Assembly: GCF_003018255.1 (NCBI RefSeq)
Contig: NZ_CP027440.1
Strand: one strand, 5' to 3'
Source of the DNA: Escherichia coli
GTDB lineage: Bacteria > Pseudomonadota > Gammaproteobacteria > Enterobacterales > Enterobacteriaceae
Length of the DNA: 64,000 bases
Shown: one piece after another, positions 4,311 to 40,022 of the stretch
Layout of the letters: every line of letters starts with the position of its first letter
Numbering within the stretch: the first letter of the stretch is position 1
Made by a program: the position numbers and the translations under genes
Notes under the pieces: model-generated
The model's database searches: none
Told to the model about the DNA's origin: nothing
Seen by the model: only the letters and a program-made list of their open reading frames with translations

Positions 4311-4379
4311 ATTGTATTCTCTTTAGTGGGCGTCAAAAAAAACGCCGGATTAACCGGCGTCTGACGACTGACTTAACGC

Positions 4380-6065
4380 TCAGGCTTTATTGTCCACTTT
4401 GCCGCGCGCTTCGTCACGTAATTCTCGTCGCAAAATTTTTCCGACGTTAGATTTCGGTAACTCATCACGAAACTCCACCAGCTTCGGTACTTTGTAGCCC
4501 GTGAGCTGACGGCGGCAAAAAGTCACCAGTGACTCTTCGGTAAGTGATGGATCTTTTTTCACAACGAAGATTTTCACCGCTTCGCCACTGGAGCCAGAAG
4601 GTACGCCAACAGCCGCGACTTCCTGTACGCCAGGATGCTGCATGACGACATCTTCAATCTCGTTGGGATAGACGTTAAAACCGGAAACCAGAATCATGTC
4701 TTTTTTACGATCGACAATACGCAGGAATCCTTCTTCATCCATCACCGCGATGTCGCCAGTGTGTAACCAGCCATTTTTGATGATTTCATCGGTAGCATCC
4801 GGACGCTGCCAGTAACCCAGCATCACCTGCGGTCCTTTGACACAAAGCTCACCTGGTTGACCCGGTGGTACTTCGTTGTCGTCGTCATCCACCAGTTTGG
4901 CTTCCGTCGACGGCACCGGCAAACCGATGCTACCACTATGATAATCAATATCATACGGGTTAACGCTGACCAGCGGCGCACACTCGGTCAGGCCATAACC
5001 TTCCAGCAGATACTGCCCTGTCAGTTTCACCCAACGTTCTGCCACCACTTGCTGAACAGGCATCCCACCGCCTGCGGAAAGGTGCAGACTGGAGAAATCC
5101 AGCTGCTGGAACTCTTTATTGTTCAGCAACGCATTGAATAAGGTGTTAACGCCAGTGATAGCGGTAAACGGATATTTCGCTAACTCTTTTACCAACCCTG
5201 GAATATCGCGCGGGTTAGTGATAAGCAGGTTCTGCCCACCCAGTTCGATAAACAGCAGGCAGTTAATGGTCAGTGCAAAAATGTGATAAAGCGGCAGCGC
5301 CGTCACCACCAGCTCTTTGCCCGGATGCAACAGCGGACCATAGGTCGCGTTAACCTGTTCCAGGTTCGCCAGCATATTGCGGTGAGTCAGCATCGCGCCT
5401 TTCGCCACACCAGTGGTACCGCCGGTGTATTGCAGGAAAGCTAAATCTTCCGGCACCAGTTCGGGTTTGACGTACTGCATCCGGTAGCCGTTGTGCAGGG
5501 CGCTACGAAATGAAATGGCATCTGGCAGATGGTATTTCGGCACCAGACGCTTGATGTATTTAACAACAAAATTGACTACCGTGCCTTTTGCCGTAGATAG
5601 CTGATCGCCCATACGGGTCAGAATTACGTGCTGAACGGCGGTTTTATCAACCACTTTTTCCAGAGTGTGGGCAAAGTTAGACACGATAACAATCGCCGAT
5701 GCGCCGCTATCGTTAAGCTGATGCTCAAGTTCACGCGGGGTATACAACGGGTTAACGTTTACGACAATCATCCCGGCACGCAAAATGCCAAACAGCGCCA
5801 CCGGATATTGCAATAAATTAGGCATCATCAACGCAACGCGATCGCCTTTCTTCAGTCCCAACCCTTGTTGCAAATAAGCGGCAAACGCGCGACTGCGTTC
5901 TTCCAGTTTGCGGAAGGTCATCACCTCCCCCATATTCACAAACGCGGGTTGATCGGCGTAGCGCGCGACCGACTGCTCAAACATATCTACCAGAGATTGA
6001 TAACGGTCAGGGTTGATCTCCGTCGGAACGTCCGCGGGATAACGGTTAAGCCAAACCTTCTTCAA
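4380..6065 (-). CDS. fadD: Long-chain fatty-acid CoA ligase FadD, 561 aa, TTG start
   Basis: ORF 4380..6131 minus; known N-terminus [10 protein letters not shown] begins at the TTG codon at 6063-6065; AMP-binding motif [12 protein letters not shown] present. Confidence 0.93.
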
Positions 6066-10868: not shown

Positions 10869-11048
10869 TTACTCGTCTTCATCCTCAAAACGCGCCACGA
10901 TTCGCTCGCCGGAATGGTTGGCACGCAGCTCTTCTGCCACCAATGCGATTGCCTGGCCGCTGCTCATCCCTTGTGCCATCAGTTCCTGGATCCGCTCGAC
11001 GGCTTTTTGCTGCTGTTCATGGGTGAGTGAAGGTAAACCTGCAAACAT
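10869..11048 (-). CDS. yoaH: Small UPF0181 protein YoaH, 59 aa
   Basis: Minus-strand reading from ATG at 11046-11048 gives [27 protein letters not shown]...RFEDEDE and stop at 10869-10871; not in supplied ORF track because under length cut-off. Confidence 0.85.
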
Positions 11049-11121
11049 TGTTAACTCCTGCTAAATTGTTGGCGCTAATTATTTCATGCTACCCGGCACA
11101 TAGCCAGTAGAGTCAGGACTG

Positions 11122-23377: not shown

Positions 23378-23468
23378 GACAACTCCGGCAGGATACTAAA
23401 GGCCGCAAGTGTAACGCGAATCACGCGGCGGGCAAATATCCGAACGACTGGAGCGAAGATAAAGCAAA

Positions 23469-23497
23469 GTAAAAAGCCTCGCATTCGACGAGGCTTT
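23469..23497 (-). terminator. cspC intrinsic terminator
   Basis: Minus-strand RNA forms gcctcg / cgaggc stem followed by uuuuu. Confidence 0.7.
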
Positions 23498-23542
23498 ATA
23501 GCGAGATTGAAGCGTATTCACACTTCAGATCAGTGGATTCGA

Positions 23543-23752
23543 TCAGATAGCTGTTACGTTAACAGCTGCCGGACCTTTCTGACCGTCCTGAATTTCGAAC
23601 TCAACGTTCTGACCTTCAGCCAGAGTTTTGAAACCATTACCCTGGATAGCAGAGAAGTGTACGAACACGTCTTTGCTGCCATCAGCCGGAGTAATGAAGC
23701 CAAAACCTTTAGACTCGTTGAACCACTTAACCTGACCTTTAATCTTTGCCAT
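23543..23752 (-). CDS. cspC: Cold-shock-domain protein CspC, 69 aa
   Basis: ORF 23543..23752 minus; [20 protein letters not shown] with RNP motifs. Confidence 0.96.
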
Positions 23753-23764
23753 TTGAAAAATTCC

Positions 23765-23908
23765 TTAGATTGTTTTCTTCGCCCGCAGGCATAACATAGA
23801 TAAAACTGACACATTACTGCATGAGGCACCAATATAAGGCTCGGCAGAGAAGCGGTATTCAACGTCAACGTGTTTACTCAGGACTTCTTTACTGAAAATG
23901 CCACACAT
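23765..23908 (-). CDS. yobF: Small stress-induced protein YobF, 47 aa (co-transcribed with cspC)
   Basis: Manual minus-strand translation [47 protein letters not shown]; ends 12 nt before cspC start; below ORF-track cut-off. Confidence 0.85.
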
Positions 23909-24532
23909 AAACAGAACTGTACCTCGTTTAACCCGAAATCTGTTATCACATACAACGTTAATTATGGCAAGCCATTTTTAAACATGTCTCGATCAGACGC
24001 ACAAATCTCGATACGTCTTCCACTTTTTTTGCACACTTATGCAACGGAATACGCGCCGATATATCATTGTGCTTAACCTTGCCAGTTCAGGCAGATACTT
24101 AAACTGACGTATTTTCTAACATAGTTCAATAAGTTCAGTTGTTCCAGGCCAGTGGGAGAAGTTATTACATAGTGCGTGCAATATCACATTTTCTGCTATG
24201 CAATGAATAAAAAGTTATATCACTTTTTCTCATAAAACAGTCAGTTAACGGCTATCGATCACCCCAAAGAGAAGTCAATCGCCAAAGGTATTGTAAATTT
24301 AAAATAAGAAAAATTGATGAATGCGCAAAAAAATCAAGAGAGAAACGTTTCGCTAATAAATAATACCACGCTTAATCACAAATCCGATGTAAACATCCTA
24401 ATAAATTAATGGGCTAAATATCTTTTTCTGATATCCCGTTACGCAAATAAATAATATGATAATTATTTGAAGTCAGACCAGAGTTTTAATTTGAAGCAGT
24501 TGCACCATGACAGTGCGTATAATCAGGATGAA

Positions 24533-28011: not shown

Positions 28012-28893
28012 TTACTTCAGGTATTCACCCGTACGCAGAGCTTCAATACGTTTATCCAGCGGCGGGTGAGTCATGAACAACTCACTGAGCGATTTCGACT
28101 TACCGTTAATGCAGAAAGCCATCATGCTGGTTGCTTCTTGCGGTTCATAGCTGGTTTTCAGGCGCTGCAATGCAGCAATCATTTTCTCGCGACCAACCAG
28201 TTTTGCCGAACCGGCATCAGCGTGGAATTCACGATGACGCGAGAACCACATGGTGATAATGCTCGCCAGAATACCAAACACCAGTTCCAGAACCGTTGCA
28301 ACCGCAAAGTAGATCAGCGGGTTGCCGTTGCTCTCTTCACCTTCATCACGATTTCCGCCCATAAAACCCGCGGCAAGCTGCGCCAGAATTCGGGAAATAA
28401 AGATAACGAAGGTGTTCACCACGCCCTGAATCAGCGTCATGGTGACCATATCACCATTGGCGATGTGGCTGATTTCGTGAGCAATTACCGCCTCGGCTTC
28501 ATCCGGGCTCATGTTCTGCAGCAAACCGGTGCTGACAGCAACCAGAGAGGCATCACGGCGCGCACCGGTTGCAAAAGCGTTGATGTCCGGCGCATGGTAG
28601 ATAGCCACTTGCGGCATAGCGATCCCCGCCTGACGAGCCTGGGTTGCTACAGTATTGACCAGCCAACGTTCCCTTTCGTTACGCGGTTGCTCGATCACTT
28701 CCCCGCCAACAGATCGTAATGCCATCCATTTGGACATCAGAAGCGAAACGAAGGAACCACCAAAACCGAACAGCAAGGCCATGATCATCAGCCCCTGAAC
28801 GCTGCTCGACTGTATCCCTGTCAGGCTCAGTACCAGCCCGAAAACGACCATTACGGCCAGGTTCGTTAGCAGGAAGAGCGCGATTCGCATCAT
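28012..28893 (-). CDS. htpX: Membrane zinc metalloprotease HtpX, 293 aa
   Basis: ORF 28012..28893 minus; HEISH zinc motif present. Confidence 0.95.
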
Positions 28894-38629: not shown

Positions 38630-39286
38630 TTATTGCAATTGCACAAGAGTCAGTTCGCCCCCAAAGACAGCACCGGTATCAATATAATGCAGGTTGCCAA
38701 TATCCACGCGATGTCGCAACGGTGTATGACCAAACCAGAAATGATCAGCACCTTTAATTCCCTGCCCTTTTGGGCGTTCACCTAATCGCGAGCGGCTCCA
38801 CAAGACCTGATGCAAATCAACGTCCTTTTGCCATTCATAAACATCATCCGGATAATCGGCATGGGCAATAACATGTTTGCCGGTGCGACTGTGTACTTCA
38901 AGAATAAAGGGCAAATGCTGACATTTTTCCAGCGCCGTTTTCGCTTGTTTCTGTTGATTATCTGCCAGCGCAATAAACCAGTCGCCGCCATTCATGAACC
39001 ACAAAGACATCTGCTGGGATGCCAGCGCATCCATCGCCATCTGTTCATGATTGCCTCTTACCGCACGAACCCAATGTTGTTCCAGTAACTGCAGGCAACG
39101 TAAACTTTGCGGCCCACGATCGATAACGTCTCCCACTGAGATAAGTAAATCTCGCCACGGATCAAAACGACAATGCCATAATTTGCGGCGCAACTGCTCA
39201 AGACAACCGTGTATATCGCCTGAAAGCCAGATATGTCGCCATTGATGACCCGCAATTCTCTGATAAACGGGCGCAGGCTGTTTCAT
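38630..39286 (-). CDS. pphA: Ser/Thr protein phosphatase 1 (PphA/PrpA), 218 aa
   Basis: ORF 38630..39289 minus; calcineurin-like phosphoesterase motifs GDIHG, GDVIDRG, GNHE. Confidence 0.92.
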   Translation of the reverse strand: MKQPAPVYQRIAGHQWRHIWLSGDIHGCLEQLRRKLWHCRFDPWRDLLISVGDVIDRGPQSLRCLQLLEQHWVRAVRGNHEQMAMDALASQQMSLWFMNGGDWFIALADNQQKQAKTALEKCQHLPFILEVHSRTGKHVIAHADYPDDVYEWQKDVDLHQVLWSRSRLGERPKGQGIKGADHFWFGHTPLRHRVDIGNLHYIDTGAVFGGELTLVQLQ

Positions 39287-39322
39287 CAATATTTTCCTCC
39301 CGCGCTAAAGATCACATAATCT

Positions 39323-39571
39323 TAACAAGAATGTTAAAAAACGCTGGACGCAGACAGTAGAGTGTGTGTTATGGTTGACTATAAAGTCAGCGAAGGGAAT
39401 GCTTCTGGCTTTTAACAGATAAAAAGAGACCGAACACGATTCCTGTATTCGGTCCAGGGAAATGGCTCTTGGGAGAGAGCCGTGCGCTAAAAGTTGGCAT
39501 TAATGCAGGCTTAGTTGCCTTGCTCTTTAAGAATAGATGACGACGCCAGGTTTTCCAGTTTGCGTGCAAAA
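39323..39571 (+). ncRNA. ryeA: RyeA (SraC) sRNA, antisense partner of SdsR (boundaries approximate)
   Basis: Non-coding pphA-yebY spacer; plus-strand transcript position inferred from recall of the ryeA/ryeB overlapping arrangement. Confidence 0.5.
39421..39523 (-). ncRNA. sdsR: SdsR (RyeB) sigma-S-dependent sRNA
   Basis: Minus strand reads GCAAGGCAACTAAGCCTGCATTAATGCCAACTTTTAGCGCACGGCTCTCTCCCAAGAGCCATTTCCCTGGACCGAATACAGGAATCGTGTTCGGTCTCTTTTT, ending in a terminator hairpin plus U-tract. Confidence 0.8.
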
Positions 39572-39608
39572 TGGTCAATAAAAAGCGTGGTGGTCATCAG
39601 CTTAAATG

Positions 39609-39650
39609 TTAAAAACCGCCCGTTCTGGTGAAAGAACTGAGGCGGTTTTT
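39609..39650. terminator. Bidirectional terminator-like hairpin downstream of yebY (A-tract / stem / T-tract)
   Basis: aaaaaccgcccgttctggtgaaagaactgaggcggtttttt. Confidence 0.55.
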
Positions 39651-39680
39651 TATTGGAAATCAAAAGGCTATTTTAGGTAA

Positions 39681-40022
39681 TTAACAGAGTTTTTCAGCTC
39701 GCTCTATAAACGGTGCCAGACTCATTTTTTCGCCGGGATTGTTAGGATCATCAATCTGAATCACCGAAATGGGTTGGGCTTTAGTCTTCCCACTGGCAAC
39801 TTCCTTTTGTGCGATATCGTTTAACGGATACTGCACGAGGGTACTTGGGTTGATGACATACAAAGCATTACCCGGTCGGCAAGTCAGCATCACCTCTTCG
39901 CGATTAAACGCCCATTTGTCTTTACCCACTTCAAAACGGCTGACGGTAATCACCTGCGGTGCCGCCAGCGCCGCTGCAGAACTGGTGAGTAACAGAAACG
40001 CCAGAATACTTTTTTTCATCAT
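39681..40022 (-). CDS. yebY: DUF2511 periplasmic protein YebY, 113 aa
   Basis: ORF 39681..40022 minus; signal peptide [20 protein letters not shown]. Confidence 0.9.

Follow-up and report, generated by a model that had tools for sequence, protein, structure and literature searches.

The locus studied here raises the question of what the intergenic region between pphA and yebY in Escherichia coli encodes, as PGAP-annotated RefSeq genomes, including one that shows no difference from the window across the 561 nt compared, carry neither an sdsR nor a ryeA feature, and the spacer therefore appears empty unless an Rfam-type scan is run. A first-pass annotation had placed the overlapping sRNAs SdsR (RyeB) and RyeA (SraC) between the two genes, a pair that has been known since the sRNA screens of 2001–2003 and that has been dissected in E. 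coli and Salmonella. In the window, by which we mean the whole 64-kb stretch of DNA that was analysed, the intergenic region corresponds to positions 39287–39680, and both of its neighbors are encoded on the minus strand:

38630–39286, minus strand: pphA, protein-serine/threonine phosphatase 1, a 657-nt CDS as in RefSeq (open reading frame and annotation).
39681–40022, minus strand: yebY, a DUF2511 protein and the upstream neighbor of sdsR (open reading frame and annotation).

The ATG of pphA at 39286 and the yebY stop codon, which begins at 39681, confirm the spacer length of 394 bp that had been given. Beyond yebY, yebZ/copD and then yobA follow, and pphA is located downstream of sdsR on the same strand. 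An Rfam scan of the 64-kb window at gathering thresholds returned four matches, two of them inside the spacer, namely the SdsR/RyeB and RyeA families, both far above threshold and on the expected strands, and together with the MG1655 annotation these matches bear out the proposed pair. We put the probability at about 95% that the canonical sdsR/ryeA locus, with two convergent promoters ~140 bp apart and an antagonism between RyeA and SdsR, explains the region as a whole. The copy described here is the already known locus, and there is nothing new about the copy. This analysis itself supplied the identity and coordinates of the locus, the elements of its promoters and terminators, its conservation and the asymmetry between its strands, and sigma-factor dependence, RNA ends, mutual degradation, interference, read-through and targets are taken from experiments in K-12 and Salmonella. 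Of 5426 complete E. coli genomes, 5425 contain the 561-nt region around the spacer (39200–39760), which is 100% identical in E. coli JNE23-011. Outside this region, the window and JNE23-011 are not colinear, and JNE23-011 has an IS200C between htpX and prc that the window appears to lack.

The sense partner was identified by several lines of evidence. SdsR_RyeB (RF00111) matched the minus strand at 39421–39520 over the full model (1–100), with 114.4 bits against a gathering score of 38 and E = 1.8e-21. The MG1655 sdsR annotation (1923104..1923207, minus strand, 104 nt), when carried over by alignment, covers 39421–39524, and the K-12 start has been mapped 1 nt downstream of this old annotation, which is position 39523 of the window (Choi 2019, PMC6610125). 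Family match, annotation transfer and mapped start thus agree with the earlier assignment of the minus strand of 39421–39523 to SdsR. The K-12 RNA has a 5' triphosphate and 3' ends at +100 to +102, corresponding to 39424–39422 (PMC6610125), and the start is found 158 nt downstream of the yebY stop codon on the same strand. The elements are as follows:

39421–39523, minus strand: sdsR, the SdsR/RyeB sRNA of ~100–103 nt, with its 5' end at G39523 and 3' ends in the U-tract 39425–39421.
39427–39455, minus strand: Rho-independent terminator of SdsR, 11 pairs with a 7-nt loop, followed by CUUUUU at 39426–39421 (terminator scan, inverted repeat and fold).

The hairpin and U-tract that had been described for the end of this RNA are therefore real features of the sequence, as an 11-pair stem (39455–39427, minus strand) is directly followed by CUUUUU. 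The whole RNA folds with −34.8 kcal/mol (z = −4.4 against shuffles) into three stem-loops, of which the terminator is the last, and 5208 of 5425 complete E. coli genomes share the mature SdsR at 100% identity. The sdsR/ryeA overlap of E. coli 2017-03-3CC is broken up by an inserted ISVsa5.

Upstream of the SdsR start, the minus strand contains a promoter:

39527–39557, minus strand: sdsR promoter, with a −35-like TGGAAA (39557–39552), a 16-nt spacer, TATTCT (39535–39530) and TAA (39529–39527).

A search for a sigma-S −10 element upstream of 39523 on this strand gave a single-match extended −10, TCTATTCTTAA at 39537–39527, which is of the sigma-S type, has C at −13 and has its last base 4 nt before the start of SdsR. 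In the form KCTAYNCTTAA, the motif matched once in 64 kb on either strand, at this very position, against 0.2 expected. Read base by base, T39537 is at −14 and C39536 at −13, and TATTCT is followed by TAA, AGA and G(+1). Sigma-S selectivity has been attributed to a −13 C, a −14 T or G, a −8 C, an A/T-rich discriminator and a 16-nt spacer (Frohlich 2012, PMC3333887), and every one of these properties is present in the sdsR promoter. The sigma-S dependence itself is known from the K-12 and Salmonella literature (PMC6610125, PMC3333887). A generic promoter scan did not list the sdsR promoter; it returned one promoter-like site, at 39697–39670 on the minus strand, which is chance level (1 found, 1.0 expected).

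Conservation was assessed with an SdsR core pattern of 21 specified bases, which found at least 120 loci in species-representative genomes, and the listed loci span Enterobacteriaceae, Yersinia, Serratia, Rahnella, Dickeya, Brenneria, Hafnia, Erwinia-like genomes and others. Most SdsR positions that the pattern had not fixed are at least 90% conserved in the 120 loci listed. Among the matches listed, C(−13) together with TAYNNT was present in all 110 sequences with enough flank, and TGGAAA was the commonest −35. In 111 of the 120 listed loci, SdsR has a yebY homologue upstream on its own strand that ends 134–216 nt before the SdsR start, and pphA was found in only 21 of 120. An SdsR-like match in a Paraglaciecola MAG has no yebY nearby. 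The secondary structure is conserved as well: compensatory changes occur at 5 of the 11 pairs of the terminator stem (helix 3), in which 99.7% of cells are paired (84 distinct orthologs among the matches listed), and the measures for the whole structure were reached by 0 of 500 shuffles and were above all slid controls. Helix 2 is fixed by the search pattern and hence uninformative for covariation, and helix 1 is poorly aligned, with 75.8% paired.

For the antisense partner, SraC_RyeA (RF00101) matched the plus strand at 39417–39561 with 176 bits against a cut-off of 37, over the full length of the model. Most of this model is complementary to SdsR and the sdsR promoter, and every SdsR locus tested is matched by it, including loci without the E. 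coli ryeA promoter; in E. albertii it scores 175 bits despite a replaced ryeA promoter block. As the match is mostly a mirror image of SdsR, it is not independent evidence for the existence of RyeA. The MG1655 annotation places ryeA between pphA and yebY (1923066..1923337, plus strand, 272 nt), which is equivalent to 39383–39653 of the window. The K-12 5' end is the annotated start (39383 in the window), with two minor starts 1–2 nt upstream, and the K-12 3' ends range from +261 to +270, the first lying within the stem and the last at the final U of a tract of 7 U (PMC6610125). Since the U-tract of the window has 6 U (39646–39651) where K-12 has 7, RyeA can be expected to cover about 39383–39651, roughly 269 nt:

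39383 to ~39651, plus strand: ryeA, the RyeA/SraC antisense sRNA of ~269 nt (alignment to MG1655; RF00101 covers only 39417–39561).

The alignment to K-12 also upholds the view that RyeA is encoded on the opposite strand and runs fully across SdsR (39421–39523, minus strand), with an overhang of 38 nt past the SdsR 3' end and of 128 nt past the SdsR 5' end. A second palindrome had been noted at 39609–39650, and it was indeed found, with two arms of 10 nt (39611–39620 and 39641–39650) that are 100% complementary:

39611–39651, both strands: a hairpin with the shape of a bidirectional terminator, AAAAACCGCC...GGCGGUUUUUU (inverted repeat; closing hairpin of the RyeA fold).

This palindrome is the Rho-independent terminator of RyeA itself. 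It is flanked by the U-tract 39646–39651 on the plus strand, hairpin (39611–39645) and U6 (39646–39651) coincide with the K-12 3' RACE ends at +261 to +270, and K-12 RyeA terminates in vitro at the same hairpin (PMC6610125). The terminator scan passed over it because its outer loop is longer than 8 nt. A permissive Rfam rescan of the spacer gave nothing beyond two sub-threshold matches over the terminator hairpin region, both at 39599–39703 on the minus strand and both far under their cut-offs, rliE (22.7 bits vs 90) and Atu_C9 (12.5 bits vs 40), and these were rejected.

On the minus strand, the A-run before the first arm reads as a U-tract, which gives the hairpin the shape of a yebY terminator as well, and it is a likely terminator of that gene. 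Among close relatives, the shape of the yebY-side hairpin is kept and its sequence is not, and at least 68 of 110 sequences have an arrangement of A-run, hairpin and T-run, with differing stems, in the interval from yebY to sdsR (strict perfect-stem test, matches listed). These observations bear on the idea that SdsR is no gene of its own and represents a processed 3'-UTR fragment of the yobA–yebZ–yebY operon transcript. Such sRNAs are common in enterobacteria, and sdsR is found just downstream of yebY on the same strand in the great majority of the listed loci (111/120). However, a terminator-shaped hairpin separates yebY from sdsR, all 110 listed sequences have the conserved sigma-S promoter core in the right place, and K-12 SdsR begins with a 5' triphosphate, is transcribed in vitro by E-sigma-S and is gone in a −10 mutant (PMC6610125). 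A 3'-UTR origin is thus contradicted by the K-12 data and by the conserved own promoter, and we rejected it as exceedingly improbable. SdsR is better regarded as the product of its own gene within the canonical sdsR/ryeA locus.

A promoter for RyeA can be proposed on the plus strand:

39345–39375, plus strand: presumed sigma-70 promoter of ryeA, with an extended −10 TGTTATGGT at 39367–39375, a −35-like TGGACG at 39345–39350 and a spacer of 19 nt, which is long.

The TGTTATGGT element ends 7 nt ahead of the K-12-mapped RyeA 5' end (39383), and the −35-like hexamer is TGGACG in the window and TGGACT in K-12. We presume this to be the ryeA promoter from its position relative to the K-12 5' end and from its limited conservation; by itself, the extended −10 motif is not significant (2 matches, 1.95 expected), and a strict generic promoter scan did not list the ryeA promoter. 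The sequence around the K-12-mapped 5' end is kept with 2 SNPs in 81 nt, and the block of promoter and 5' part is present at ≥95% identity in 5418 of 5426 E. coli genomes. In the alignment of close relatives, CTGGAC...TATGGT occurs at the same spacing in Escherichia and Citrobacter, and was not seen in E. albertii or Salmonella. The argument for RyeA in the window is its near-identity to K-12 over the mapped promoter, 5' end and terminator.

The two strands differ markedly in their conservation. When three RyeA-only blocks (promoter and 5' part, 39330–39420; 3' part, 39561–39608; terminator, 39609–39652) were compared by blastn-short with the 120 listed loci, they were recovered in E. coli only, the terminator also in E. 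albertii, whereas the SdsR block was recovered in all 120. As blastn-short has a limited sensitivity with queries of 37–91 nt, absence outside Escherichia means that there is no recognisable similarity, and an antisense transcript may be made elsewhere. Downstream of sdsR, the E. albertii and Salmonella sequences are unrelated in the alignment of close relatives. In the SdsR terminator stem, 101 cells are G·U, which pair on the SdsR strand only, versus 2 that are A·C, which pair on the RyeA strand only; these cells are not independent, and the asymmetry is present at several stem pairs. Judged from these comparisons, selection visibly favors the SdsR strand. The comparison agrees with the description of sraC as poorly conserved and variable in promoter position (Frohlich 2012, PMC3333887).

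It may therefore be asked whether only SdsR is selected and functional, with RyeA being a lineage-specific antisense transcript, an RNA of little function, whose apparent conservation and Rfam family are a shadow of SdsR on the opposite strand. The restriction of the RyeA-only blocks, the high RF00101 score in E. albertii and the G·U excess all point in this direction, Frohlich 2012 took the same view, with SdsR changing only ~1.5-fold without the sraC promoter (PMC3333887), and RyeA RNA supplied in trans had no effect on the activity of a pphA reporter (PMC6610125). Against this stand the effects of a ryeA promoter mutation in K-12, which led to earlier SdsR and a ~4-fold increase in pphA expression, and the finding that over-expression of either RNA speeds the decay of the other (PMC6610125); the near-universal presence of the ryeA promoter/5' block in E. 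coli and the retention of CTGGAC...TATGGT in Citrobacter argue likewise. On balance, we regard this reading as rather unlikely, and it concerns how important RyeA is, not what the locus is. How much RyeA matters physiologically is debated because its specific sequence is unconserved outside Escherichia and because SdsR rose only ~1.5-fold upon deletion of the sraC promoter.

The first-pass annotation had also stated that the spacer contains no plausible open reading frame. This is correct in substance, as no CDS is annotated there, but not literally, as frames of 63, 50, 38, 24 and 23 codons exist. Other sRNA loci have proved to be dual-function, and these mechanically found frames could in principle mean that the spacer hides a small protein gene, either the 63-codon frame or one of those within RyeA, in an arrangement resembling a type I toxin–antitoxin system with a peptide toxin. 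However, four of the five frames start with TTG (the 24-codon one has an ATG), and the 63-codon frame (39578–39387, minus strand), whose start lies upstream of the SdsR start site, is open over that span in none of the 110 orthologous sequences listed except those of the window and one further E. coli, and is cut elsewhere at varying points. Neither MG1655 nor PGAP records, including the genome identical over 561 nt, have a CDS in the spacer, and conservation tracks RNA structure, as seen in the compensatory pairs, and not codons. We hence rejected a coding function of the 63-codon frame, which was not conserved among the 110 listed sequences, and a hidden small protein gene has next to no probability in our view. 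As conservation is lacking for this frame, the one tested, and the spacer has no annotated CDS, we did not file the locus as a type I toxin–antitoxin system and kept the assignment as a pair of sRNAs.

Compared with sdsR (b4433) and ryeA (b4432) of E. coli K-12 MG1655, the flanking genes, their order and their orientation are the same. In the alignment, 428 of 433 columns are identical, and the differences are 4 substitutions and one missing T. SdsR is identical from +1 to the terminator, and K-12 also shares the sigma-S −10 of sdsR, the −10-like element of ryeA and the two terminators. The five differences are listed below; a genome was counted for an allele if it retained an exact 28-mer seed of a 41-nt query that had the site at its centre.

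39350: G in the window, T in K-12; sixth base of the ryeA −35-like hexamer; 2 of 5426 genomes (JNE23-011 and JNE112863).
39397: G in the window, A in K-12; RyeA +15; 1933 of 5426 genomes.
39524 (plus strand): T in the window, C in K-12; G-to-A at SdsR −1; 1198 of 5426 genomes.
39603: T in the window, G in K-12; RyeA +221.
39646–39651: 6 U in the window, 7 U in K-12; U-tract of the RyeA terminator; 1261 of 5426 genomes.

The SNP at 39350, the change at SdsR −1 or the shorter U-tract could each alter RNA levels. The G at 39350 may well be neutral, as Citrobacter has G there too. It is conceivable, though improbable, that the lineage represents a natural regulatory variant of the pair, brought about by the near-private T-to-G change at 39350 together with the commoner variants at 39524 and in the U-tract. 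If so, the variants could jointly alter the balance between RyeA and SdsR, and thereby the time at which SdsR and pphA are expressed as cells enter stationary phase.

How the pair works has been established largely in K-12. There, sdsR is transcribed by E-sigma-S and ryeA by E-sigma-70, RyeA prevails in early growth and SdsR in stationary phase, and inactivation of the −10 of either gene raises and prolongs the other RNA (PMC6610125). RyeA and SdsR destroy each other (Choi 2019, PMC6610125), and the processing of the pair by RNase III is credited to Vogel 2003, as cited in PMC3333887 and PMC8687705. In vivo, sdsR/ryeA is the top stationary-phase dsRNA cluster. Hfq binding, RpoS-dependent accumulation in stationary phase and repression of targets in trans are known for SdsR of K-12 and Salmonella, the repressed targets being tolC, yhcB and mutS in E. 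coli and ompD in Salmonella. In K-12, pphA is expressed mainly from the sdsR promoter via read-through of the SdsR terminator, and ryeA transcription, not RyeA RNA in trans, cuts the output of the sdsR promoter ~4-fold, which the authors ascribe to polymerase collision (PMC6610125). By such read-through, the sdsR unit of K-12 reaches past the spacer into pphA. The term "sponge", which had been applied to RyeA, is a fair shorthand but a loose one, as RyeA is a perfectly complementary cis-antisense antagonist, the destruction is mutual, and transcriptional interference at the sdsR promoter comes in addition.

We infer that this strain probably behaves like K-12. In growing cells, the sigma-70 promoter ahead of 39383 would then drive an RyeA of ~269 nt on the plus strand that would cross all of sdsR and the sdsR promoter before stopping at the hairpin 39611–39651. 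In stationary phase, sigma-S polymerase would start at G39523 on the minus strand and produce the Hfq-binding SdsR of ~100 nt, which would repress its targets in trans by base pairing, and part of this transcription would pass the SdsR terminator into pphA. The duplex of RyeA with the full complement SdsR would be cleaved with the involvement of RNase III, and each RNA would thereby deplete the other. Separately, ryeA transcription may interfere with initiation or elongation from the sdsR promoter, and this interference may also keep pphA low during growth.

The practical value of these assignments is in annotation, and they carry little weight as a discovery. A caution for similar work is that an SraC_RyeA Rfam match taken alone is no independent proof of an RyeA transcript.

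Among known systems, type I toxin–antitoxin loci such as ibs/sib and ldr/rdl resemble the present locus in their overlapping convergent transcripts and in the neutralisation of one strand's product by an antisense RNA from the other. Over-expressed SdsR is reported to be toxic to K-12 by way of yhcB, with RyeA rescuing the effect, and the label "toxin–antitoxin" that Choi et al. (2018/2019) gave to the sRNA pair derives from this (see also PMC8687705). In these accounts, the "toxin" is itself an sRNA, which does harm only upon over-expression and does so by repressing yhcB, whereas no toxic peptide is encoded here, the 63-codon frame, the one tested, not being conserved. The CJnc190/CJnc180 pair of Campylobacter jejuni is similar in that a trans-acting sRNA is opposed by a cis antisense sRNA and RNase III processing takes place (PMC8687705). 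However, sequence and organism are unrelated, and RNase III is needed there for the maturation of the active sRNA, whereas SdsR is made as a primary transcript, with RNase III acting in its decay. In Salmonella, the sraC −10 is located ~35 bp further out, which results in a longer SraC, the sequence downstream of sdsR is unrelated, and ompD, the best-studied SdsR target of that organism, is to our knowledge absent from E. coli. The Salmonella SdsR/SraC pair nevertheless shares with the E. coli locus the SdsR sequence, the sigma-S promoter with its C at −13 and the upstream yebY (Frohlich et al. 2012, 2016), and in both an antisense partner shows reciprocal expression (PMC3333887).

The Rfam match to SraC_RyeA (RF00101) in the spacer between pphA and yebY is largely a mirror of SdsR and by itself does not demonstrate a RyeA transcript. 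The family scored above threshold wherever SdsR was present (comparison loci L004, L082, L104 and L091), and in Escherichia albertii it did so despite an unrelated sequence replacing the ryeA promoter block. In the E. albertii strain NBRC 107761 (L004), the yebY side of the locus, with its terminator hairpin, is almost identical to the E. coli counterpart. Past the SdsR terminator the two species have unrelated sequences, and a pphA homologue is absent from the ~1.2 kb downstream of sdsR. The spacer carries no feature in PGAP-annotated RefSeq E. coli genomes (e.g., NZ_AP045067.1, which holds loci L002 and L124), and sdsR and ryeA are annotated only in the curated MG1655 record.

The locus labelled Martelella alba, an alphaproteobacterial name (L082), has a typical enterobacterial SdsR. 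In a metagenome-assembled genome labelled uncultured Paraglaciecola sp. (L091), positions 11011-11110 (plus strand) match SdsR_RyeB with 62.5 bits (cut-off 38); the 5' half is divergent, and no yebY homologue was found in the 11 kb upstream. This match may represent an SdsR relative outside the Enterobacterales, or the bin may be mislabelled or chimeric.

Window position 39350 is G, as against T in K-12 and almost all E. coli; it falls in the presumed ryeA promoter, inside the -35-like hexamer. Among 5426 complete E. coli genomes, a 41-nt query centred on the site recovered the G allele in only two, JNE23-011 and JNE112863, and Citrobacter likewise has G at the equivalent position. In JNE23-011 the htpX-prc interval contains an IS200C transposase (L124, 9825-10283), corresponding to window ~28440-28460; the cspC coordinates of the two sequences are offset by ~709 bp, which indicates that the window is without this insertion, and the window strain is therefore related to but different from JNE23-011. 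In E. coli 2017-03-3CC (NZ_AP027783.1, locus L123, 3318-4820), an IS4-like ISVsa5 transposase gene lies between pphA and yebY, and the alignment with the window stops at ~39516, inside the sdsR/ryeA overlap and near SdsR nucleotide 8. In 235 of 5425 genomes, no one site matched 80% or more of the 561-nt query (window 39200-39760), so copies that are disrupted or rearranged are not uncommon.

Elsewhere in the window, two further Rfam matches were obtained, one of them over two genes:

4336-4421, minus strand: sroD RNA, full-length match, 115.2 bits (cut-off 50)
23468-23928, minus strand: cspA thermoregulator, 139.7 bits (cut-off 78), spanning yobF and cspC
23543-23752: cspC, under the thermoregulator match
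23765-23908: yobF, under the thermoregulator match

In the upstream non-coding part of the thermoregulator alignment, posterior probability is low and non-canonical pairs are numerous, and the match is therefore driven mainly by Csp coding sequence.

One promoter-like element was found at the yebY end:

39697-39670, minus strand: sigma-70-like site CTGAAA-16-TAAAAT, 9/12 matches, spanning the yebY stop codon

Its occurrence is no more than chance predicts, as 1.0 such site is expected in the region and 1 was found. The old "heat-shock pphA promoter" was reported to lie upstream of the sdsR promoter at a distance of ~180 bp, which places it within the yebY 3' end, and it was found to be inactive (Choi 2019, PMC6610125).
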